A stretch of 64,000 nt of DNA from an uncultured Gemmatimonadaceae bacterium (GTDB taxonomy: Bacteria > Gemmatimonadota > Gemmatimonadetes > Gemmatimonadales > Gemmatimonadaceae), in contig OY970320.1 of the NCBI GenBank assembly GCA_963716745.1, positions 2,720,001 through 2,784,000 on the forward strand. The letters run 5' to 3'. Positions 39,471 to 64,000 of the stretch are shown here, piece by piece. Position 1 is the first letter of the stretch; each line of letters starts with the position of its first letter. Both the position numbers and the translations under genes were made by a program. A model generated the notes under the pieces. It had not been told where the DNA came from and did not search any database. It was given only the letters and a program-made list of their open reading frames with translations.

Positions 39471-44102
<4,632 letters not shown>

Positions 44103-44105
44103 ACC

Positions 44106-48431
<4,326 letters not shown>

Positions 48432-50707: not shown

Positions 50708-51409
50708 ATGCCCGAAGAAATGAAGATCGTGATCCGCAAGGATTCTTCTCTCCTCGTCACCGGCGAAGTTCCGCTGGCCATTCAGATCATCGTCCCCAAC
50801 GAGGACGGCCTCTCCTGGCAATGGAAGGAAGGCCACAAGTTCGAGGACAAGCCCAAGTATTCCCTCTGCCGCTGCGGCCATTCCAAGAACAAGCCGTACT
50901 GCGACACGTCGCACAAGGAATTCGGCTTCGACGGCACCGAGACCGCCGACCGCACGCCGATCTCGGAAAAGTCCGAAGTGTTCGACGGCCCCGAGCTGAG
51001 ACTCGAAGACGATGAGGACCTCTGCGCCTTCGCGCGATTCTGCGATCCGGGCGGCAAGATCTGGTCGCTCATGGAGAACACCGGCGATCCCAAAGTGCGC
51101 GACCTCGCGATCCGTGAAGCAATGCATTGTCCCGCCGGCCGCCTCGTGATGGTGGACAAGGCGAAGGACGAAGCGCTCGAGCCCGATCTCCCGCCGTCCA
51201 TCGGCGTCGTCGAAGACCCCGTGCTCGGCGCCAGCGGCCCGCTCTGGGTGCGCGGCGGCATTCCCATTGAATCGCACGACGGCACCAAGTACGAAGTGCG
51301 CAATCGCGTGACCCTCTGCCGCTGCGGCGCCTCGCAGAACAAACCGTTCTGCAACGGCAGCCACGCGACCATCAAGTTCAAGGACGGCTTCCTGACGGAA
51401 AAGGCGTGA
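50708..51409 (+). CDS. CDGSH iron-sulfur domain protein (two CDGSH motifs around a central Fe-S-like domain)
   Basis: LCRCGHSKNKPYCDTSH, CAFARFC...CPAGRL, LCRCGASQNKPFCNGSH. Confidence 0.92.
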   Translation: MPEEMKIVIRKDSSLLVTGEVPLAIQIIVPNEDGLSWQWKEGHKFEDKPKYSLCRCGHSKNKPYCDTSHKEFGFDGTETADRTPISEKSEVFDGPELRLEDDEDLCAFARFCDPGGKIWSLMENTGDPKVRDLAIREAMHCPAGRLVMVDKAKDEALEPDLPPSIGVVEDPVLGASGPLWVRGGIPIESHDGTKYEVRNRVTLCRCGASQNKPFCNGSHATIKFKDGFLTEKA

Positions 51410-51846
51410 CGCTACGTCGAGCCGTCGCGCGAAGCACAGTACAAGCTGATGGACGAAGCGCGCACCATCGCGATGGTCGGCGCGTCGTCCAATCAGGAGC
51501 GCGACTCGTACCACATCTTCGGCCGCCTGCTCAAAGTCGGCTACCACGTGATCCCGGTGAACCCGCGCGAAACGGTCGTACTCGGCCAGAAGGCGTACGC
51601 GATCGCTCGAGGACATCCCCGAGAAGGTGGATATCGTCGACGTGTTCCGGAAAGCCGAGGAGACTCCCGCGATCGCCGAGAGCGCCGTGAAGATCGGCGC
51701 GAAAGCGCTCTGGCTGCAGCAGGGGATCGCGAATGACGAGGCGGCCCGGATCGCCACCGAAGGCGGCCTTACTATAGTAATGGACAAATGCCTCGCGCAC
51801 CGCGCACACCCTGCTCGGCGTCCCGAAGCGCGACCGAACCACCTGA
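51406..51846 (+). CDS. CoA-binding protein (YccU-like), frameshifted
   Basis: TIAMVGAS, GYHVIPVNP, VDIVDVFR, LWLQQGI, VMDKC. Confidence 0.85.
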
Positions 51847-51856
51847 GGCGTCGCCC

Positions 51857-52319
51857 ATGGAGTGGTTCATCAAGGCGTTCATCCGCGCGAGCCTGCTCTG
51901 GTTCACCCTCGGCATCGCGCTCGGCGTCGCGATGAGCGCGCATCCTGGAGTGGGTGGTGTATCGCCCGGCGCACGCGCACATGAATGTCGTGGGCTTCCT
52001 GACGATGATGCTGTTCGGTGTGGGCTATCAATTGTTGCCGCGGTTGTTCGGTGGTCCGCTCTGGAGTGCGAAGCTTGCGATCGCGCATCTGTGGCTCGCG
52101 AACCTCGGACTCGCCGGCATGGTCGCCGGCTGGATGCTCGCGCCGCACATCGGCGCGGCGGGCAGCATGATCACCACCGTCGGCGGCTCGTTGTTCACGC
52201 TCGGCGCGGTGCTCTTCGTGATCAACTTGTGGCAGACATTCGACTCCGCCGACGCGCGCCACCGTCCACCGCCCGGCGCCGCCGCCCCGCCGCGCAAGCT
52301 GCCCACTATCGGGGAATGA
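51857..52319 (+). CDS. Small membrane protein resembling a heme-copper oxidase (cbb3 subunit I) fragment, frameshifted
   Basis: MEWFIKAFIRASLLW...YRPAHAHMNVVGF...G.GYQLLPR...HLWLANLG. Confidence 0.7.
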
Positions 52320-52867
52320 CCGTTTACACGATCGGGCACAGCACGCGTTCGATCGAGGAGTTCGTGGCTCTGTTGAAGCAGGTGGACGTCACACTCTTGG
52401 TGGACGTGCGCTCCATCCCGCGATCGCGCGCCGTGCCGCAATTCAACGGCGACGCATTGCCTGTCTCGCTCGCCGAGCACGGCATTGCGTACCAGCACCT
52501 CGCCGCACTCGGCGGCCGCCGCCATCACAAGAAAGGCGCGCCGCGTTCGCTCAACACCTATTGGAAGGTGGACGCCTTCCGCAATTACGCCGACTACGCC
52601 GAGACCGCCGAATTCCGCGCGGGCCTCGCCGAGCTGCGCACGCTCGCTGCAACTCAGCGCACCGCCATCATGTGCGCCGAAGCAGTCTGGTGGCGCTGCC
52701 ACCGCCGCATCATCACCGACTACCTCCTCGCCGCCGGCGACCAGGTGCAGCACATTATGGGGCAGGGCAGCGTTGTGCCCGCGTCACTGACCCCGGGCGC
52801 CGAGCCACTTCCGAACGGAGCGATTCGATATCCAGGCCCACCCGAACTATCTCTCGAAAGCTCCTAA
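52316..52867 (+). CDS. DUF488 family protein
   Basis: YTIGHSTR, LVDVRSIP, LGGRR, MCAEAVWWRCHRRII. Confidence 0.9.
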   Translation: MTVYTIGHSTRSIEEFVALLKQVDVTLLVDVRSIPRSRAVPQFNGDALPVSLAEHGIAYQHLAALGGRRHHKKGAPRSLNTYWKVDAFRNYADYAETAEFRAGLAELRTLAATQRTAIMCAEAVWWRCHRRIITDYLLAAGDQVQHIMGQGSVVPASLTPGAEPLPNGAIRYPGPPELSLESS

Positions 52868-52878
52868 CGCGTGGTTCT

Positions 52879-52917
52879 CGAATCCCGCGGCGAGTCCCGA
52901 GCCCCGCGTCCCGAACA
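52879..52917 (+). repeat. 39-bp direct repeat, copy 1 (upstream of nirK)
   Basis: cgaatcccgcggcgagtcccgagccccgcgtcccgaaca, identical at 53959-53997. Confidence 0.9.
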
Positions 52918-52927
52918 AGGATCAAGC

Positions 52928-53943
52928 ATGAGCCCCACAATTCGCACAACACTCTGCGTCGCCAGCGGACTCGTACTCGCCGCATGCTCGCAGCCCCCGA
53001 AGCCGCCAGTCGCCGAACAGCAGACCGCCGCTCCCACGTCGACCCCCGCGAATGTCTCGCACGGCGAGGCCGCCGTCGGCAACGCCGCAACGCCTCCGCC
53101 CGTCGATCCGAACGCTCCGCCTCCGGCCAAGTCGAAGCTCGTGCGCGTGCGCATCGAGATCAAGAACGCGCAGCTGACGCTCGATTCCGGCGTGGTGTAC
53201 GACGGCTGGACGTTCGACGGCCGGAGTCCCGGCCCGGTGATCCGCGCGACGCAGGGCGACACCGTGGACTTCACGCTCGTGAACAAGGCGCCGATGCCGC
53301 ACAGCATGGATTTCCACGCGGCCGAGATCGCGCCGAGCAAGTATTACACGAACGTGATGCCGAACGATTCCATTCATTACAGGTTCGTCGCTCACGTGCC
53401 GGGCGCGTTCTTGTATCACTGCGGCACCGCGCCGGTGGCCGCGCACATCGCGAACGGCATGGTGGGCGCGATCATCGTCGATCCCGCGCAGCCGCGCCCG
53501 GCCGCGCGCGAGTTCGTCTTCGTGCAGAGCGAATTCTACGCCGCGCCGCCGGCCGCGCCGGGCGGCATGCACTCGCTGGACTGGGAGAAGGTGCTGAACC
53601 AGGCGCCCGACTACGTGGTCTTCAACGGCCGCGTGGCGCAGTACGCGAAGCACCCGATCAAGGTGCCCGTGGGCGCGTTGCTGCGGTTGTATGTCGTGAA
53701 TGCCGGCCCGAACCGCGATCTCATCGTTCCATATCGTGGGCGCGATCTTCGAGAAGGCATATCCTCGACGGCAGCACCACCAATCCGCTCCAGGGTGTGC
53801 AGACCGTGAACGTCCCCGTCGGCGGCGGAGCGATATTCGAGGTCCGCCTAAGAGAAGCCGGCACCTACCCATTCGTGACTCACGCCTTCGCCGACGCCAC
53901 GAAGGGAGCGGTGGGAATGTTCGAAGCCGAGCCAGTAAACTGA
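52928..53943 (+). CDS. nirK: Copper-containing nitrite reductase-like lipoprotein (frameshifts near 53720 and 53760)
   Basis: Lipobox LAAC; HSMDFH, YHCGTAPVAAHIANGM, SSFHIVG, YPFVTHAF copper ligands. Confidence 0.8.
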
Positions 53944-53958
53944 CGCGCATTGGCATCC

Positions 53959-53997
53959 CGAATCCCGCGGCGAGTCCCGAGCCCCGCGTCCCGAACA
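53959..53997 (+). repeat. 39-bp direct repeat, copy 2 (downstream of nirK)
   Basis: Identical to 52879-52917. Confidence 0.9.
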
Positions 53998-54001
53998 TAG
54001 G

Positions 54002-55469
54002 ATGAGCTTGGGCTCGACACCGCGCACCGCCCTCGAAGTCCTCATTGCACTGACTCTCGGAGCAGTCGCGTGGGCGATTGGCGGCTCGCTTCGCTCGCCG
54101 GAGCTCCCGCCGAGCGCTGAGACGCTTCAAAGCCCGCGTCAACCGATTCAAACTCACGCGCAAGCCGTACATCCGCACCACGCTGCTCGCCGACTCCGCG
54201 ATCGAGATGCGCCGTGAAGTCGCACGCCGCCGAGCACGGCGAGCCCGTCGAGAGAACCTGGCAGCGCGTCGACGCGTACATCGACGAGATCGTCCCTCAC
54301 TTCAATATTTTCGCGTACTACCGCGCCGGCTACGTCGCGAGCCGCGCGGTGCTGAACTTCCTGTACAAGGTGAGCCTCGACTACGAGGATCTCCCGGCGC
54401 TCGACGCGCTGCCCGACGATTCCGTGGTCATTTACCTCATCAATCACAAGTCCAACGCGGACTACGTGCTGCTCGCGTACGTGCTCGCGGGCGACGTGTC
54501 CATCTCGTACGCCGTGGGCGAGTGGGCGCGCGCGTTCCCGCTGGAGTGGGTGTTCAAGAGTTTCGGCGCGTATTTCATTCGCCGTCACTATCGCGAGCCG
54601 CTCTATCACACCGTGCTCGAGCGCTACGTGCAGCTCATCACGCGGAACGGCGTGACGCAGGGGATCTTTCCCGAGGGCGGCCTGTCGCGCGACGGGCGGC
54701 TCAAGCCGGCGAAGATCGGGCTGCTCGACTACGCGCTGGGCGTCGCGAAGGATCCGGATGTCGCGAAGCGCATGGTGCTCATCCCGGTGGCGCTCAACTA
54801 CGACCGTGTGCTGGAGGACCGCACACTCATTCGCGAACTGCGCGCGAAGGAGGGCGGGGAACGGGTGGGCCGCGTGCGGCAGGCGCGCGAAGTGCTGCGG
54901 TACATCGGCTGGAACGTGGCGCGCACGCTCACCGGGCAAATGGAAGCGCTACGGCCGGGCGGCGGTGACCGTGGGGCGGCCGATGCGCATCGAGCCGTGG
55001 CTCGCGCGGCATCCGGGCATGCTGTCATTGCCGCGTGAGCAGCGGTTGCCGGTGGTGCAGGAGTTATGCGACGAGGTGATGGCGCGCATCGGCGCGATCG
55101 TGCCGGTGACGTCCGTGGCGCTCGCGTGCGCCGCGATCCAGAGCTTCGACCGGGATTTCATTCCGCGCGCGGAGCTGCTCGCGCGCATGGCGGAGATGCG
55201 CGATGTGCTCGTGGAACTCAACGCGCGAGTGCTGCGCGCCGACCGCGACATCGCCGAGACCTTCGACCGCGCCTGGCGGATGCTCGAAATGCGGCGCATG
55301 CTTGCGGAGACGGGCGGCGGGTACTCGGTGCTGCCGGGGAGCCGGGAGTTGATCAGTTACTACGCGAATGGCATCGCGCACTTGCTTGGCGATTTCGAGG
55401 CCGGGCATGCGTGCGAGGGATGCGCTGCCCATGGAACGCGTGACCGGGGGCGTGGCCGCGGCGCGCTGA
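54002..55469 (+). CDS. Glycerol-3-phosphate/lysophospholipid acyltransferase (PlsB/PlsC-like), frameshifted
   Basis: NHKSNADY (HX4D), GAYFIRR, FPEGGLSRDG, IPVALNYD. Confidence 0.85.
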
Positions 55470-55545
55470 GCGCGATCGGATCGCGTACAGTCGCGATTCA
55501 ATCGATGATGCTGGCCGCCGGCGGCGCGGCATTATGCATCTCGGC

Positions 55546-56658
55546 ATGCCCACCCCGCAAAAGCTGCTCGATGTGGTGCGCGAGCGACTGCAATTGCGCC
55601 GCGCGAGCCCGAACACGATCGAGGCTTACACCGGTTGGATCCGCCGCTACGTGCGTTTCCACGGCGGCCGCCATCCGCGCGCACTCGGCGAGCCCGAGGT
55701 GACCGCCTTCCTCTCCGAGCTGGCCACCCGGCGGCGCGTCGCCGCGTCCACGCAGAACCAGGCGCTCGCCGCGCTGCTCTTCCTGTATCAGGAAGTGCTC
55801 GGCGTCCCGGTCGGGAATCGCTCAAGGATGTCGTGCGCGCCAAGCGTCCGGCGCGCCGTCCGACCGTGATGTCGCGCGATGAGGTGCGCAGCCGTGCTCG
55901 GCGCAATGGATGGCGCGCCGCGGTTGATCGGCATGCTGATGTACGGTGCCGGGCTCCGGCTGCACGAGGCCTGTTCGCTGCGGGTGAAGGATCTCGACTT
56001 CGCGCGCGGCGAGATCATCGTGCGTCACGGCAAAGGCGGCCGCGATCGTCTCACCATGTTGCCACTTACCGCGCTCGACCCGCTCCACGAGCATCTCGAG
56101 CGCGTGCGGCGGCTGCATCAGCGCGAGTTGGCGGCGCGGCGCGGCTACGTCGCGCTCCCCGACGCCTTCGCGTTCGAAGTCGCCGGCGGCCGCGCGCAGC
56201 CTGGCCATGGCAGTGGGCCTTCCCCGCCACGCGCGGCTATCGCGACCCGGCCACCGGCAACTGGCTCCGTCATCATCTGCACGACACCGTCGTGCAGCGC
56301 GCCGTCGTCGCGGCCGCGCACCGCGCGGGACTGAGCAAACGAGTCACCACCCATACCTTCCGCCATTCGTTCGCGACCCACCTGCTCGAGAATCGGCTAC
56401 GATATCCGCACCGTGCAAGAACTGCTGGGCCACAAGGATGTGAGCACCACCATGATTTACACCCACGTCCTGAACAAGGGCGCGCGCGGCGTGCGCAGCC
56501 CCGCTGACCTGCTGGACGGGTCCCCTCCGAGCGAACCTCCCTCTGCGGAAGCTCAGCCCGGCGCCGGCGCTATGCGGACCGGCTCCGTCGGCATATTCAG
56601 GGGGCGAATCATCGATGGCAGAGGAGTCAAGTCACCATGGCGGCATGGGATGCGGTGA
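55546..56658 (+). CDS. intI: Integron integrase (several frameshifts)
   Basis: [37 protein letters not shown], IntI-specific insertion (VALPDA...WQWAFPA...RHHLHD), [33 protein letters not shown]. Confidence 0.95.
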
Positions 56659-56734
56659 GAAATCCCCAATGCGTCGAGTTGACTATGCGGACCCGTGGCT
56701 GCAAGGTTGATGGGGAAGGGATGCACTTCACGTT

Positions 56735-56752
56735 GCATAATCCTAGTTAGGC
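56735..56752 (+). other. Candidate attI site
   Basis: GCATAAT-ccta-GTTAGGC; the GTTAGGC complements the GCCTAAC that opens attC1. Confidence 0.7.
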
Positions 56753-56775
56753 CGCTCACCTGATTAGAGGCTGCC

Positions 56776-57354
56776 TTGTTGTCATTGAGTCGTAGCGCTC
56801 TCGACGCACTGCGGTTCTCGACTGATGTCGAGGGTCTGCTCCGTGGGGTGACCGCCATGACTCAGCCGACTTCGGTCTGCACGATTCGTGTCGATGACTG
56901 GTTTGACAGCAAGTGGTTGGGGTTCTCTGGCAAACTTGTCGGCGCGGTCGGCGTTTGGAATACCGAACTTACAGTACCCCCGTTCAATCCGAACCGAATT
57001 CGGGAGGAACGCTGGTTTGATGTTGGACGAGACGCTGCGGCCAGCGAGCCTGGAAGGAGGCCCGCCATTCATCGTACGATGCGTAGCGACAGCAATACGA
57101 CTCGCCAGATAGCGACCGTTGCGCCGCACGTGCTCTGCGGCTGGTATACGGCGAACTCGGCGGAGATTGGCCGCGGTGCTTTGATGGTCTACGCGCCGGT
57201 GGCCGAGGGCTATTGGGCTTGGTACGTCGCAGCGAGGAAGGGTGAGCCGTGGAAGGTGACTCGAAGTAAGGGCATCTCGACGCATAAGCTGGATACGCTC
57301 GTCGATCAAACTTGCCGCCAAGACGGCCTAACTGCCGTTGCAGCCGACGGGTGA
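56776..57354 (+). CDS. Cassette 1: hypothetical protein
   Basis: ORF fills the space between attI and attC1 (VDDWFDSKWLGFSGK...VPPFNPNR); ends inside attC1. Confidence 0.7.
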   Translation: MLSLSRSALDALRFSTDVEGLLRGVTAMTQPTSVCTIRVDDWFDSKWLGFSGKLVGAVGVWNTELTVPPFNPNRIREERWFDVGRDAAASEPGRRPAIHRTMRSDSNTTRQIATVAPHVLCGWYTANSAEIGRGALMVYAPVAEGYWAWYVAARKGEPWKVTRSKGISTHKLDTLVDQTCRQDGLTAVAADG

Positions 57355-57418
57355 GCCATGGAGCGCTCGCTTCGCTCGCACTATTGTATCACCCGCGGCT
57401 GAACGCACTTCGTTAGGC
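57326..57418 (+). other. attC site 1
   Basis: GCCTAAC...TTGCAGC...GCTGAAC...GTTAGGC, imperfect palindrome. Confidence 0.92.
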
Positions 57419-57445
57419 CGCAACCGAACTCTTTGTCAAGGTGAA

Positions 57446-58045
57446 ATGGGTACAGCAACTGAGGACGGCTCGAACGGATATGAGGCGGTCGCGAACATCT
57501 ACATTGCTGGACGAGGTACCCGTTCCCGCGTCGGCGACTCGATGGGTGCCGCGGTCGTCAAGGCCTGGGCAGATGCCTTTCCCCTTGGCGCGACGGTGCT
57601 CGAGGCGGCTCGGGTCCCGGTGAACCGAGCACGCGGATCCTCCAAGAGGCCGGGCTCACGACCTACGCAGTCGACGCGTCGCCGACCATGGTCGCAGCGT
57701 TCCGCGAACGATTTCCGGGGGTGCCGATCGAGAGAAATACAGTTGAGGTTCGGAGTTCTTCAACCGGACCTTTCGTGGCGTACTTGCCTGGGGGCTGTTG
57801 TTCTTACTCGACCGGCAGCGCAAGCGCTCGTCATCAGAAAGGTGGTGCGCGCACTTGCGCCCGGGGCGCTCTCTCTTCACTGCACAGCGGCAGCCCTTGG
57901 AATGGTTGGACGCCATGACCTAGCGCCGGTCGCGATCCCTCGGCGAGCACACGTATGAGCGATTGCTGCACGATGATGGCCTGGAGTGGGTCGACGGCGC
58001 CAGGACGAGGGCGAGAACCACTACTACTTCGTCGAGAAGGTGTAG
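57446..58045 (+). CDS. Cassette 2: class I SAM-dependent methyltransferase (frameshifted)
   Basis: ATVLE.GSGPG, YAVDASPTMV, VLAWGLLF, ALAPG, DEGENHYYF across frames. Confidence 0.75.
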
Positions 58046-58158
58046 GCAGATGTCTGCTTGGACAGGCTACGACGACCGAACCAACGTCCGACACTGGAAA
58101 TGGGTTGTCCAAGGCGCTCGGATCGATCTAACCGCCACTGAGTTTGACGCGCATTGCG

Positions 58159-58257
58159 GCCTAATCTATGTTTGCAGCCGACGAACGATTTAAGGATTGC
58201 GCATGCTGCGCATGCGCTTCTATTTGACTCGTTCGCAGCTGAACTGGGGCGTTAGGC
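58159..58257 (+). other. attC site 2 (divergent type)
   Basis: GCCTAAT...TTGCAGCCGACGAACGA...TCGTTCGCAGCTGAAC...GTTAGGC. Confidence 0.85.
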
Positions 58258-58290
58258 GTCCCCAATCACAAGAGCCGGTGCGAGAGAGAG

Positions 58291-58715
58291 ATGACAGCAA
58301 CTAAAGAGATTCGAAAGCGCAGAGAGGAACTCGCCGGCCTGGCTCAGCGGGTCGCCAGGGAAGCGTACGGTCTGGAGCTGGAGTACTCAGTGGAGTCGAT
58401 TCACAAAGTCGAGACTATTCTCGGTCAACTGCATAAGGAGTTCCGGCGCACTAAAGACGATGACGGCATGAATGGCTTGGCTCTCTAGTTCTGGCGCCGG
58501 CATCATCAGAGTCATTGAGCTCCACTTCGGCGCTGGCACTTGGGCTCGCAATCACGCCTCGCTTGGGCCAGATACGTTTCCGTACAAATGGCAAGGCCGG
58601 GGCGTTCTTCCAATACGTATGGGTGCCAGAAGCGCATCTTCGACGGCTGGCCGACGACGTTTGGGCCAAGTTCCAGACTCTGGTGGTTCAGAAGGCCTCG
58701 CAGGGCTCCGCCTAA
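58291..58715 (+). CDS. Cassette 3: hypothetical protein (in-frame stop and frameshifts)
   Basis: LEYSVESIHKVETIL...KRIFDG...DVWAKF; stop TAA lies within the attC3 R'' box. Confidence 0.65.
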
Positions 58716-58802
58716 CTGCCGTTGCAGCCGACGGGTGAGCTATCGAATGCTCGCTTCGCTCGCATTATTGTATCACCCGCAGCTGAACGCACTTCGTTAA
58801 AG
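58710..58802 (+). other. attC site 3
   Basis: GCCTAAC...GTTAAAG, near-identical to attC1. Confidence 0.92.
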
Positions 58803-58878
58803 CGCGAAGCGACTGCTCACTTGAGGCAGAAACGCCCTACGAAACAGTCATCGACGTCGCCCGCGAAGGATTTGGCTC

Positions 58879-59330
58879 ATGGCGGTTCTCGGCAACGGGA
58901 TGTCGGCATCGCGATTGGCATTGATGTTCGACTACTTTCATCGGCATCCGACCCCCGTCGACGGCAAGTACCGGCCCGCTGTCGGCAAATTGACTGCCTC
59001 GTGCAGCGTCTGGTGGACGTCAGAGGCTTCGGTAGCACACACGTTGAGTACGCTCGCATGAGGGAAGCGTTGCGGACCGGCAAGTTCGTTGTCGTTGAGG
59101 GCGTGGTGTGGGACTACAAACCGGCGCCGGCCGAGGGGCATGCTTACGAAGAGTTCGACGTTGCGGGTCATCAGTATTCGTTTTCGGATTACGTGACCAT
59201 TGCCGGATACCACAAGTCACAATCGCACGGAGGATTGATCCACGAGGGGCTGCAAGTTAGAACGACGACGTCGGGGGGCAGATTGCCCGACTGGAGATCG
59301 GCGGAGCGGAGAGAATATGCCCGCTCCCTA
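58879..59330 (+). CDS. Cassette 4: hypothetical protein, probably membrane-anchored (frameshifted, ends approximate)
   Basis: VVEGVVWDYKPAP..GH.YEEFDVAG..FSDY...GGLIHEGLQVR...IARLEI. Confidence 0.6.
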
Positions 59331-59396
59331 GCAGAGCGTTGCCAATCGCGGAGCAAATCAGGGAGGCTTCCTTTCCTCTTAGGCGTTCACGGCGCG

Positions 59397-59489
59397 CCGT
59401 AACTGCCGTTGGAGCTGACGGGTGAGGTATCGAATGCTCGCTCCGCTCGCATTACTGGATCACCCGCAGCACAACGCACTTCGTTAGCC
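59397..59489 (+). other. attC site 4
   Basis: CCGTAAC...TTGGAGC...GCACAAC...GTTAGCC, same family as attC1 and attC3. Confidence 0.88.
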
Positions 59490-59515
59490 CGAGCCACAGG
59501 GATCGTTGAGGAGCC

Positions 59516-59724
59516 ATGTTCGCGATACTCTTGACCGTCCTTTGGTACGCGATTTGGATCCCCGTCATGTTCCTCTGCTTGGTCGTGACCATCATTGGTC
59601 TCGTGGTAGGATCGAGGGCTCCATTCGAGCGAATGCCGCTCCTGACAAACTATTCAGAGGGTTGCTCGAGGTGTTCCGGGCCGCTCTTTGTGTCGTCCAG
59701 CGCCTATTCGACCGCTGGCCCTAA
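59516..59724 (+). CDS. Cassette 5: small hydrophobic protein (frameshifted)
   Basis: RBS gaggag, MFAILLTVLWYAIWIPVMFLCLVVTIIGLVVG; TAA in the attC5 R'' box. Confidence 0.55.
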
Positions 59725-59813
59725 CCGCCGTTGCAGCCGACAGGTGAGATCTCGAAGCTCGCTTCGCTCGCACTATTTGTTGATCACCCGCAGGTAAACG
59801 CACTTCGTTGTGC
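59719..59813 (+). other. attC site 5
   Basis: CCCTAAC...TTGCAGC...GGTAAAC...GTTGTGC, same family. Confidence 0.85.
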
Positions 59814-60330
59814 AGACAACCGGTTCACAGACGAGGTGAAGAGATCATGCAGAACTTCCTGTCAGAAGCTATCAGACCTTAGCATAGTTCTGGCGCTGAT
59901 CTGTGTCCCGCTCGGTACGGGTGCGATCTTCATCCCCCTTGGACGAGGATCGCGGAGCGGTTTCGAGCAACAGGAGATCTCTTTGGCCTTGGTGCGAATT
60001 TGCACTTGAATCGGGCGGTCTTCGCGCGTTTCGATGGTATCGAAGCGACGTGGGCGAACTTGCGGCGGCGCTTGAACGAAACGCTGATCAGCAGCGAATG
60101 CTCATTGCGACCCTCCGTGAGCAGGGGCGAATCGATCCTGCTCGAGGCGCGGATACGAGCGAGGGGCAGGATTACCACCCCTCATGCACCAGATTTGGCG
60201 CACGTCCGTTTGTGCGTGCGTGAAGAACAGCGCGCTTCGCAGAGACGTCACGGGATTCATCGCAAGCACACTGAGTTTCGACGGCCGATATCTCGTTAGC
60301 TGGAGACTGAAGATCAGAGGAGACGAACAG

Positions 60331-60787
60331 ATGACCAAAGTGACACCTTTCTGATGTTCAACGATCAGCTCGAAGCTGCCATGGCGTTCTACGCCAGCAC
60401 GTTCCCGGATTCTGAGATGAAGAACGTCGCCCGCACCGGCAAGGACGTCGCATCACTTCCGCCGAATTCGTCATTGGTGGTCAGTCCCTCATGGGCTATA
60501 ACTGGTGGCCGGTATTCAAATTCTCCGAAGGCATCTCGCTTCTTGTCGACTGCAAAGACCAAGAAGAAGTTGATTAGCTATTGGAGCAAGCTCATCAGCG
60601 GCGGCGCAACGCCATGCAGTGTGGCTGGATCGCCGTCCGATTCGGCATCACTTGGCAGATCGTCCCAAGGCGTTTCATGGAGCAGATGCAGAGACAAGAA
60701 CCCGAGGAGCAACAGGCGGTGATGGAACGATGATGAAGATGGCAAGCTCGACGGACGGCAATGGAAAGAGCATACGAGGACGCATAG
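60331..60787 (+). CDS. VOC/PhnB-like (3-demethylubiquinone-9 3-methyltransferase family) protein, frameshifted
   Basis: MTKVTPFLMFNDQLEAAMAFY, FSEGISL, YWSKL, QCGW, FGITWQIVP; preceded by GTTAGCT at 60295. Confidence 0.8.
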
Positions 60788-60946
60788 TGCTGTCCGACAT
60801 TATCTGCGGCGGGAAGCGGTTCTTCGAGGGCGCCCTGGCCACCGCTCCGCATCATGCGAGCGATCGGATTGGCGAGGACGCGGTGCGGGCGTTACAACTC
60901 TACGTCATCGCGCGACGCGAGTTCGCCGCCCGGCTCATCGACCGCG

Positions 60947-61044
60947 GGATGACCCCCCCCCGTTGCAGCGCGCTCATGCTCACGATGCATTTGCAGGTGC
61001 TTGGCCAGCGCGAGCCGACCCGCGGCTGAGCTGGCGGCTTCGGT
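60947..61044 (+). other. Degenerate attC-like site
   Basis: ...tgac-ccccccc-cgTTGCAGC...cccgcgGCTGAGC-tggcgg-cttcggt retains the L boxes, but the R boxes are corrupted. Confidence 0.45.
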
Positions 61045-62377
61045 GCTGCCCTGCGTGCGAGAGATGCGCTGCGGCTACAGCGCGCGACAGGGGGAGTGGG
61101 TGCTCTGCGATGAGTATTAGTGCGACGACTCGCATGTAGCACGGCCACTGCGCGATCGAGCACGGAGTCGGCCGCGGGTGTTGGCGCGGATCCTGGAGTC
61201 GCCGCGACGGGCATGAGCGCATCCAACGCGAGCGCGTAGTCCAAGCAGAGCTGGTAGGCGCTGGACGAGAGCGACACGGTCATGTCTGAATACGGCCAAA
61301 CGGCGCCGAGGCTCGAATCGGGACCGCGAATGTGCTCCATCGGACGTCCCGACGGCCGCACGAAGGCGAAGGTCGTGATCTAGACTCGCTGATGCCCATC
61401 GCCATAGGGAACATTTCCTGGCCGTGCCCCTTCCCCATGACCGGTATTTTTTACCACCACGGCGCGGCGATTGTCCTGCAGGCTCGCGGCGACGAGTTCG
61501 CGACCGACTGCGTATATCCATCGATGAGCAGCGCCACGGGGAGCCTCGTGGTCATTCCTCGTTGTGCTGGGATGACCTGTATCGAATCATGGTAGCGAAA
61601 GGAGAAGACGGTGCCGGAATCGAGGAATCGATCGGCGACATTGAGGGCGGCGCGCACCAGCCCGCCGCGATTGACCCGCAGATCGAGCACGAGTGCCACC
61701 GCACCGGCCCTATCCACAGCGGCGATCGCGCTGTCCTACTCAACGGGCGTGCTGGCGGCGAAATGTTCGATGCGAACTTTTTCGATCCGTTGTTTGGCAT
61801 TGGCCATGTAGTCCCAATCGCCTGAATTTGAGGCGCCGAATGCCCCTGACGGTTGGCAGCGGAATCACCGCCCTCCGCACCGACACGCGAAGGTCTGCCT
61901 TGGCCAACGGGCGCGCGAGGGTGAGTCGCTACGGTCGTGCCACCAGGCCTCGGGAGACGCTCGTGATATCGTCCATTGATCGGGACGCCACGGCCCTGTC
62001 ATGGACCTCGAGCAGAACGTGGTTCACGCGGATACCGCCTTTGAGCGCTGGAGAGTTCTTGAAGACGCCGGTCACGCGTACTGTTGCGGATGCACTGTCG
62101 ATGGCGAGGCGCAGGCCGACCCCGGCGAACGAGCCCGAAACCGTACCATTGAGCTCGGCCCATTCCGCCGGTTCGAGATACTTGGGATATGCATCGAACG
62201 ATCTGATTATTCCATTGCGTGCAGCGACGCGCGGCTCTCATGGGTGATCGGCCGGACGTATTGCTTCCCGATGGTCGTGAGCAACTCCTCCATGGGCGGC
62301 CTCGGCGCTTCCAGTGGCCGGAGTTTGGCCGTTGCCGTGGCTGGGAGGCGCGTGACTACCAGTCAGAGGAGGATCAT
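61026..62377 (-). pseudogene. S41 family C-terminal processing peptidase (PDZ plus protease), heavily disrupted
   Basis: GSFAGVGL, NSPALKGGI, LVLDLRVNRGGLV, ADRFL, LPVALLIDG, ELVAASLQDN across frames. Confidence 0.7.
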
Positions 62378-62491
62378 GGTGCGCAGCGACCATCGGTTCG
62401 CTTCAATGGAAAACGCCTCGGTCGAGAGCGTTAATGATGGACCCGCAGGAGGGCCGTCCTGCGCCCTCTGCGTACTGCGTGGCGCCTTCGC

Positions 62492-62754
62492 TCAGCGATA
62501 GACGTCCCGGCGATGGCCGATCTTGACGACAATCACGACCACCAGAGCATCGTATGGATCTCATAGAGGATGCGGTAATTGCCCTTGGCGGACGCGGTAC
62601 CGCTCCTGGCCGGACAACGTCTTCGGCCCCCGGTGGGCGAGGGTCGGTGGCGAAGAGACTGGATGCGGCTGGCGACGCGGGCGCGGTCCTTCGGCGGGAG
62701 CTGCTCGAGTTCCTTGGCAGCCGAGCGCTTGATCTCGACCTTATAGCTTGCCAC
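62492..62754 (-). CDS. relE: RelE/ParE family toxin (frameshifted)
   Basis: YKVEIKRSAAKEL...DPRPPGA...RYRVRQGNYRILYEI...VKIGHRRDVYR. Confidence 0.88.
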
Positions 62755-62972
62755 GACGCTTCAGATCTTTGAGCACCGCTTCAAAGGCGAGGGTCGGCTC
62801 CTTGGCACGTGCATCGTACGCTGCCAGGTCCTCAGCATCCTCGGCCAGGCTGGTCCGGATCGCCTGGTTCACGAGCTCGGAAATGCTCCGCTCGGTCGAG
62901 GCCGACCTTCACCGGCAGGGCCTTATGAAGGCTCGGGTCGAAATAGACGGTGGCGCGTTTCTGGCTCGGCAT
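62741..62972 (-). CDS. Ribbon-helix-helix (CopG-like) antitoxin (frameshifted)
   Basis: MPSQKRATVYFDPSLHKAL...SISELVNQAIRTSLAEDAEDLAAYDARAKEPTLAFEAVLKDLKRRGKL; overlaps the toxin start. Confidence 0.85.
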
Positions 62973-62978
62973 GCACGA

Positions 62979-63007
62979 AAGATAACGTTATGACGTCATG
63001 ACGTCAA
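62979..63007 (-). promoter_or_regulatory. Toxin-antitoxin promoter with overlapping operator palindromes
   Basis: TTGACG-N17-TATCTT, 6 nt before the ATG; contains TAACGTTA/TGACGTCA/TGACGTCA in tandem. Confidence 0.75.
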
Positions 63008-63052
63008 GGAGGAGTCGGCGAGTGAGCTGGTCAATGCCTCGCTTGGTTTGAT

Positions 63053-63355
<303 letters not shown>

Positions 63356-63656
63356 CAGGAGCGGTGCAACGATGACCGCCCGGCATCGTTCTAATTAATT
63401 TCGGGATACCCAGACTGGAGGACGGCATCGAGTGCATGGGCTTCGCAGCAGGACCGCCTGCGCTGCCCGAACGTTGTCAAGAGGGCGCCGACGTGTGTTC
63501 AGGTCGAATTCTACCGCCGCCATTTTTTTTTTATTATTTTATTATTATAATATTATAATAATAATATAATAATAATAATATAATAATAATAAAAACGCAG
63601 CTGCCGATCGGCTGAGCGAGTTCGCGCGGCACCCAGGCCGCGCTGCATATTCCCGC

Positions 63657-64000
63657 ATGCCCGTCGTCACCAGCGTCGAAGACCTGCGCCGTCTCGCCGA
63701 GCGGCGCGTGCCGCGCATGTTCTATGACTACTGCGCCGCCGCAGCTGGACGGAGTCGACGCTCCGCGCGAACACGATGACCTGAACCGCATCAGCTCCGC
63801 CAGCGCGTCGGCGTCGACATCGAGCATCGCAGCACGTCCCACGATGTGCGGCACCGGCGTCGCGATGCCGGTCGCGCTCCGCTCACCGGACTCGCCGGCA
63901 TGATGCACGCAACGGCGAGATCCTCGCTGCGCGCGCGGCCGAGCGCTTCGGCGTGCCTTCACGCTCAGCACGATCAGCATTTGTGCGATCGAGGACGTCG
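63657..64000 (+). CDS. FMN-dependent alpha-hydroxy acid dehydrogenase (LldD-like), partial and frameshifted
   Basis: MPVVTSVEDLRRLAERRVPRMFYDY...TGLAGMMH.NGEILAARAAERFGVPFTLST. Confidence 0.8.

Follow-up and report, generated by a model that had tools for sequence, protein, structure and literature searches.

The 64-kb window analyzed here, which is the whole stretch of DNA under study, is part of contig OY970320.1, a single-contig genome of 3.29 Mb with a G+C content of 66.9%. Between 55534 and 59813 of its + strand lie an integron integrase gene (intI), an adjacent attI recombination site and five gene cassettes bounded by five attC sites. The genes rpoB and rpoC adjoin this neighborhood on the same contig, and the host was placed in the Gemmatimonadota because of the identity pattern of its rpoB protein, which shares 83-90% identity with genomes that bear the titles Gemmatimonadetes, Gemmatimonadaceae or Gemmatimonadales bacterium vs 60-62% with a Candidatus Eisenbacteria genome. 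An earlier reading of the sequence, here called the original prediction, had proposed an integrase (IntI) with the integron-specific insertion, an attI about 90 bp past its stop codon and at least five units of an open reading frame (ORF) plus attC, all co-oriented in a reverse layout on the chromosome of a probable member of the Gemmatimonadota and carrying largely uncharacterized cargo. Each of these proposals stands on the evidence given below. The features of the element are listed here; the start of intI was taken from a same-genus ortholog, cassette limits were drawn by cutting at G|TT and every attC was recognized by its repeat boxes, its hairpin and a covariance model.

55534-56658, + strand: intI, the integron integrase gene (TIGR02249, PF13495 and PF00589)
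56659-56752, + strand: intI-attI spacer and attI, placed by the end of homology with a same-genus genome and by conserved boxes
56747-57412, + strand: cassette 1, 666 bp, with an ORF at 56776/56857-57354 that has no family match, and attC1
57326-57418, + strand: attC1
57413-58251, + strand: cassette 2, 839 bp, with a frameshifted ORF that has sub-threshold methyltransferase-domain matches, and attC2
58159-58257, + strand: attC2, a divergent member of the family
58252-58796, + strand: cassette 3, 545 bp, with ORF pieces in three frames and no family match, and attC3
58710-58802, + strand: attC3
58797-59483, + strand: cassette 4, 687 bp, with ORF pieces and no family match, and attC4
59397-59489, + strand: attC4
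59484-59807, + strand: cassette 5, 324 bp, with a small ORF at 59516-59797 that has no family match, and attC5
59719-59813, + strand: attC5

As assembled, intI is spread over five frame pieces. Four of these, between 55546 and 56520 of the + strand, match the integron integrase model TIGR02249 over profile positions 1-92, 108-201, 212-275 and 277-314 with 96, 85.5, 81.9 and 61.7 bits, respectively, and the fifth is a linker of 23 amino acids without a match to this model. Each piece scores below the TIGR02249 cut-off of 265 bits, the best stretch in a six-frame search of the genome reached 184 bits, and the remaining matches to the model in the same genome are all partial and Xer-like. Pfam returned PF13495 (96 bits) and three pieces of PF00589. 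The additional domain specific to IntI proteins, which lies between patches II and III and which XerC/D lack, is present: the piece at 56202-56402 corresponds to profile positions 212-275 and scores 81.9 bits against the integron model vs 36 bits against XerD. By way of the same-genus ortholog, this stretch aligns with the corresponding part of the solved Vibrio integron integrase 2A3V. The catalytic R, K, H-x-x-R, H and Y residues can all be read in the frame pieces of the window, and R141, K166, H272, R275, H298 and Y307 are invariant across 30 aligned IntI proteins. An alternative start codon (ATG) lies at 55546 and the stop codon (TGA) occupies 56656-56658.

The ortholog is found in a genome of the same genus, G425, whose rpoB protein is 99% identical to that of the window. 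There intI is intact, a single open frame of 373 amino acids, which gave 414 bits with TIGR02249 (cut-off 265) vs 146-152 bits with the XerC and XerD models and which aligns end to end with 2A3V (E 3e-78). A C-terminal tail of about 45 residues (56503-56655) extends past the family profile and is weakly conserved, being found in G425 and, at 31% identity over 48 amino acids, in another genus (locus L056).

The attI R box, GTTAGGC at 56746-56752, lies 88 nt past the intI stop codon. It is part of a simple site in which an L box (GCATAAT, 56735-56741) is separated from the R box by a 4-bp spacer (CCTA), the two boxes being inverted; a spacing of 4-5 bp between the L and R boxes is given for attI simple sites in the available text of PMC12614218. 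G425 keeps GCATAAT, the 4-bp spacer and GTTAGGC as well as a TTGACT of the intI-attI spacer. We infer that crossover would take place between G56746 and T56747. The sequence TTGACT-17 nt-CAAGGT at 56679-56707 is a candidate promoter, proposed from its letters.

The five attC sites are 93-99 nt long, begin with an RYYYAAC-like box and end with a GTTRRRY-like box. The criteria applied to them were R''/L''/L'/R' boxes, an imperfect hairpin, extrahelical bases, a central spacer that stays unpaired, a terminal loop that varies and a size of about 57-141 nt, and all five sites have the boxes, hairpin, spacer, loop and length of attC sites. Upon folding, the bottom (−) strands gave imperfect hairpins in which a 4-nt spacer beside the R box is left unpaired, single bases bulge from the R''-L'' arm and the loop varies; the attC1 bottom strand has a free energy of −32.8 kcal/mol. 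On the structure proposed for them 86% of cells are paired, vs 26-38% when the pairing partners are slid, and seven base pairs are changed on both sides. The original prediction had described a homogeneous family. This holds for attC1, attC3, attC4 and attC5, which are 83-92% alike, and does not hold for attC2, which departs in its L boxes by a compensatory swap of GGGTGA/TCACCC for GAACGA/TCGTTC. R1, a covariance model trained on these five sites, scored them at 64-112 bits on the + strand and at most 29 bits on the − strand, and R2, a broader model trained on 105 sites of relatives, recovered the same five. Neither model found a further attC elsewhere in the genome among the 150 candidates scored with each. 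An Rfam scan of 54000-64000 matched no attC family and gave only two weak, unrelated matches.

Most of the cargo matched no known protein family and is uncharacterized. Pfam searches of 19 and then 17 ORF pieces gave no match for cassettes 1 and 3-5 or for the DNA at 59814-60317, and the two methyltransferase-domain matches of cassette 2 (PF13649, 17.7 bits; PF08241, 17.2 bits) are both under the cut-off. ESM Atlas returned no usable match for cassette 1, the cassette 5 ORF is hydrophobic-looking by eye and no resistance gene was recognized by Pfam among the ORF pieces. These searches are less sensitive because of frame errors in the assembly.

Comparison with G425 sets the attI boundary. The two genomes are syntenic over 50754-56752, at 84% DNA identity, through intI, and the homology stops at the final base of GTTAGGC; past the attI core G425 carries a different ORF. 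Its array resumes on another contig with four attC sites (52.7-88.7 bits) that belong to the family found in the window; about 8 kb further lies a fifth with a weaker score (40.1 bits). The cassettes of the two genomes are entirely different, and beyond the attC sites the DNA common to both amounts to a gene of family PF06983 plus two short stretches at 60806-61011. As homology ends at the attI core and is followed by different cassettes with the same attC family, the comparison indicates that cassettes have been turned over at the attI site. A fixed platform with swapped cassettes in near relatives is the trace that an active integron would be expected to leave. When the flanks were compared with 20 long-contig relatives, only low-complexity noise (<50 bits) was seen. 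The first cassette on G425 contig C9 (L071, 11391-11409) ends in a 19-nt palindrome, GCCTAAC-CCGTC-GTTAGGC, which has R''/R' boxes without L boxes or a loop and scores 15 bits (E 0.058) with R2. The palindrome could be an attC in minimal or collapsed form, or a collapse in the assembly.

The expected workings of the element are those of other integrons. IntI would be a tyrosine recombinase with the integron-specific extra domain that binds double-stranded attI and the folded bottom (−) strand of attC. Circular cassettes would be inserted at G|TT of attI (56746/56747) and would be excised by attC x attC recombination. Cassette transcription could come from read-through from the intI promoter, from a promoter in the spacer or from both; read-through is possible because intI runs toward attI and stops 88 nt short of it. 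The cumulative GC-skew minimum lies at 1.90 Mb and dnaA at 1.92 Mb, and from these positions the + strand at 2.78 Mb is taken as the leading strand, which puts the attC bottom strands on the leading-strand template. The recombinogenic strands would then have the orientation that has been reported to limit excision in sedentary chromosomal integrons. In the available text of PMC5371416, 25 of 30 such integrons have this orientation.

Following Cury et al. 2016 (PMC4889954, available text), a complete integron consists of intI together with one or more attC sites, and what PMC13323075 and PMC4889954 describe in their available texts as an inverted-integrase integron has its attC sites on the strand of intI, in an array that lies past the intI 3' end. 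That is the arrangement found in the window, and we are confident that the element is an "inverted integrase" integron on the chromosome of a member of the Gemmatimonadota (Gemmatimonadales). For sedentary chromosomal integrons, Cury et al. give, in the same available text, presence in all genomes of a species or more than 19 attC sites; here there are five, and the same locus is occupied in G425, the only other genome of the genus that was searched. Several points weigh against our assignment. The assembled intI cannot be translated in one frame, there are only five attC sites and the array has no defined distal end. Because R1 and R2 were built from these sites and their relatives, they are no independent test of the attC sites of the window. 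A scan for sigma-70-like promoters gave no match in the intI-attI spacer, and the GC skew is weak and noisy.

The original prediction needs a correction in that intI as assembled is not one open frame. Relative to the intact G425 gene, the assembled sequence has insertions at five places, with nothing deleted: AT at 55817-55818, A at 55890, G at 56176, C at 56200 and T at 56393. Taken at face value, these frame breaks would be genuine: intI would be a true pseudogene, and the array would have ceased to recombine in this strain and persist as a frozen relic. The broken cassette ORFs, the short array and its ragged end fit such decay, and intI pseudogenes beside attC clusters are known (PMC4889954, available text). 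We nevertheless consider decay unlikely. The essential gene rpoC (44247-48286), 7 kb upstream, is likewise cut into at least seven consecutive frame pieces (the adjacent rpoB, at 39486-44048, is one open frame), many ORFs in 52000-61000 are broken, those of the cassettes included, and genome completeness is 89.8% despite the single contig. All the catalytic residues of IntI are kept, and the G425 ortholog is intact. A run of about 320 nt of poly(A) at 63050-63370, followed by low-complexity DNA of the ATT/ATA type at 63530-63560 in a genome of 67% G+C, suggests an unpolished assembly; the run is probably an artefact of the assembly or of read ends. Given the shattered rpoC, the broken cassette ORFs, the completeness and the poly(A) run, the frameshifts of intI and of the cassette ORFs are most likely assembly indels, and the cell itself probably carries an intact integron.

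The far side of the array is less orderly. The features found there, together with a repeat that flanks the integron on both sides, are the following.

55408-55470, + strand: direct repeat copy 1, the native 3' end and stop codon of a PF01553 acyltransferase gene, 63 nt before intI
59814-60317, + strand: about 500 bp without a recognized attC and without a counterpart at the matching place in G425
60354-60733, + strand: a frameshifted PF06983 (3-dmu-9_3-mt / PhnB-like) gene, matched in two frames with 37.9 and 21.2 bits
60803-61011, + strand: a patchwork of fragments, with one copy of an 88-nt repeat and FMN_dh similarity
61052-61114, + strand: direct repeat copy 2, a diverged acyltransferase end (about the last 21 codons) on the far side of the integron

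The original prediction had ended the element at 61044. This coordinate is not an attC, because none was found between 59813 and 61044; the stretch consists of the PF06983 gene and gene fragments. Neither covariance model gave a site in 59813-61044, nor did folding of 60150-60310 and 60740-61060, and past 59813 R2 gave nothing on the + strand and one weak match on the − strand at 60837-60954 (16.9 bits, E 0.036). A similarity to CCGTTGCAGC near 60950 was considered as a degenerate attC and rejected because the stretch is a fragment of an FMN-dehydrogenase paralog. The DNA at 59814-60317 could be a cassette whose attC has decayed, or DNA that belongs to no cassette. The PF06983 gene is 73% identical to a G425 homolog (C14, 131762-131296) that lies directly 3' of the last attC of that G425 stretch, and it is either the last cassette, lacking an attC, or the first flanking gene. 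Within the patchwork, an 88-nt repeat (60803-60889) has two more copies in the genome, at about 1119335 and 1123207, 3.9 kb apart. The adjoining 121-nt fragment (60891-61011) matches, at 80% identity, an internal stretch of an FMN-dependent dehydrogenase gene 3 kb downstream (64026-64143), and its FMN_dh match in Pfam is weak (17.1 bits).

Further out, 61012-63623 has no counterpart in G425. The genes in 63624-71666 are common to G425 contig C14, where their order differs, and one more attC lies between two shared blocks of that contig (123327-123418). The disposition of these blocks is suggestive of rearrangement where the array ends. A toxin-antitoxin reading of 62533-62872, made by eye, was rejected as it had no Pfam support.

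The two copies of the flanking repeat are 75% identical over 63 nt, and both read ...RARDAL...TGGV...R-stop with the stop codon in register. Their similarity scores 42.8 bits vs a maximum of 33.7 bits in 200 simulated sequences. Copy 1 is the native C-terminus, since acyltransferase orthologs end in ...LLGPFEAGVRERDALP... One explanation is that the whole platform (55471-61051) came in as an island by a single insertion at the acyltransferase 3' end and that the repeats mark the junctions, a history that could hold together with our assignment of the element as a chromosomal integron. In its favor, a direct repeat lies on both sides, in register and beyond the simulated null, the integrase gene lies 63 nt from copy 1, and intI stands next to the acyltransferase gene only in the same-genus genome and at none of ten loci from other genera. 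An empty site was sought at these ten short loci and at seven extended acyltransferase loci of other genera and was not found: they share nothing with the integron or with 61040-66500, and the seven extended loci have nothing in common with the window downstream of the acyltransferase gene. The flanking repeat was not present within 3-9 kb in any of 19 relatives, and the far flank also holds a fragment of another nearby gene, which fits local rearrangement equally well. No case is known in which IntI moves whole platforms. Insertion as an island is thus improbable in our view.

That intI and the array were joined merely by misassembly of a metagenome bin is barely credible. The assembly does contain indel errors and an odd poly(A) tract, but homology with G425 breaks at the exact base predicted for attI, a cassette follows intI in G425 too, the same attC family occurs on another contig of that genome and the layout recurs in independent genomes. 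Finally, the repeats are GC-rich hairpins that follow ORFs, yet the notion that they are ordinary intergenic palindromes (REP-like or terminators) beside an Xer-type recombinase, with no integron present, deserves almost no credence, given that the integron model beats XerC/XerD for the G425 ortholog (414 vs 146-152 bits), that the repeat family occurs nowhere else in the genome, that R''/R' core boxes are present and that the first boundary is the GTTAGGC of attI.

The chromosomal inverted-integrase integron of the window is ordinary for its phylum. IntI proteins above the cut-off were found in 164 of 401 sampled Gemmatimonadota genomes (about 41%), with 62 of 93 in the family of the window and 103 of 166 in the next family, these being the two largest, and several genomes have two to four matches. 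These tallies include the unpublished genomes G097, G182 and G157. A 2016 survey reported complete integrons in about 6% of complete genomes and in 20% of those of Gammaproteobacteria (PMC4889954, available text); 41% greatly exceeds about 6%, although the two are not strictly comparable, since IntI alone was counted here and complete integrons there.

The original prediction had regarded the reverse layout as a rare minority, and this must be revised. The layout is already a named type, the "inverted integrase integron" being one of two known structures (PMC13323075, available text). The available text of PMC4889954 describes the inverted-integrase group as paraphyletic and known from Treponema, where intI is transcribed toward attI (PMC3607928, available text). 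At 15 of 20 long-contig Gemmatimonadota loci, R1 detected attC sites beyond the 3' end of intI and on its strand (E<=0.01); three of the others have only weak matches in that layout, one has none and one is on a contig that ends after intI. The opposite, divergent layout was found at none of the 20 loci at E<=0.01. The co-oriented layout is the arrangement found at every Gemmatimonadota locus that could be judged. Among the matches listed (150 rows), 39 intI genes are no more than 1.5 kb from the first base of a contig, 37 of them on the − strand and hence with the 3' end toward it; assemblies would thus break just past the intI 3' end, at the place where repeated attC sites would begin.

As a control, R2 was applied to 80 named loci from many phyla, of which 19 were co-oriented, 10 were canonical and 51 gave no match. 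The co-oriented loci come from Gemmatimonadota, Acidobacteriota, Eisenbacteria, Planctomycetia, Actinomycetota and one metagenome-assembled genome titled Proteobacteria (one of them, L140, is from the unpublished genome G458), and the canonical loci are mostly from Pseudomonadota, plus Microcystis and an Anaerolineae. A quick IQ-TREE tree of 100 IntI rows was then read against these labels, with segments shorter than about 270 residues left out and the G425 IntI standing in for that of the window. The orientation label changes once among the 47 labelled rows, whose nine canonical members group in a single clade (SH-aLRT 91). The G425 stand-in groups with Gemmatimonadota IntI proteins (SH-aLRT 94), in agreement with the expectation that the IntI would fall beside reverse-type integrases. 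Support is by SH-aLRT, with no bootstraps, and the Xer root, on long branches, is unsure; when the tree is so rooted, the canonical clade is nested and the co-oriented IntI proteins are the surrounding grade. Gemmatimonadota IntI proteins are scattered among those of Acidobacteriota, Planctomycetota and Eisenbacteria. Their scatter is a hint of exchange among soil phyla.

The available text of PMC8618304 already lists Gemmatimonadota among the integron-bearing phyla, and the available main text of PMC9024848 does not mention them. Our literature search found no paper devoted to integrons of Gemmatimonadota; supplements, which were outside the search, may list such loci. The locus is a further example of the known inverted-integrase integron in the usual layout of its phylum, and no new system. 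It is of use as a clean reference case, with attI set to the base by comparison, a homogeneous attC family common within the genus and cassettes that differ between its two genomes. The phylum survey matters more than this single locus. What can be studied from it is a pool of cassettes, mostly unannotated, and a way of coupling integrase and cassette expression that may be different. Two bolder readings can be put forward: (a) that the platform entered its lineage as a unit at the 3' end of the acyltransferase gene, a housekeeping gene, with diverged copies of that end left on either side, and (b) that the co-oriented layout is original and dominant across Gemmatimonadota and allied soil phyla, the divergent layout having arisen once from it. 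We consider them unlikely. If (a) were true, site-specific insertion would be a way for the integron platforms of soil phyla to move.

Among known systems, the classic "inverted integrase" integrons of Treponema (T. denticola type) are likewise chromosomal and carry cargo mostly of unknown function. In the tree, the IntI of a Treponema sp. belongs to the grade that holds inverted IntI proteins of Gemmatimonadota, Acidobacteriota and Actinomycetota; Treponema is, however, of another phylum, and that IntI is just 46% identical to the G425 ortholog. The sedentary integron of Vibrio cholerae (VchIntIA, 2A3V) has the integrase fold, the family and the integron-specific region in common with the element described here, as well as homogeneous attC sites, a fixed locus at which the cassettes of relatives differ and bottom strands on the leading-strand template. 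It differs in having a divergent intI and at least 100 cassettes (PMC5371416, available text), whereas here intI is co-oriented and there are five attC sites. Class 1 mobile integrons resemble the element in their recombination logic, in an attI of two inverted boxes around GTTRRRY and in cassettes that end in attC. They are borne on transposons or plasmids and have a divergent intI and resistance cargo, in contrast to the chromosomal, co-oriented integron of the window.

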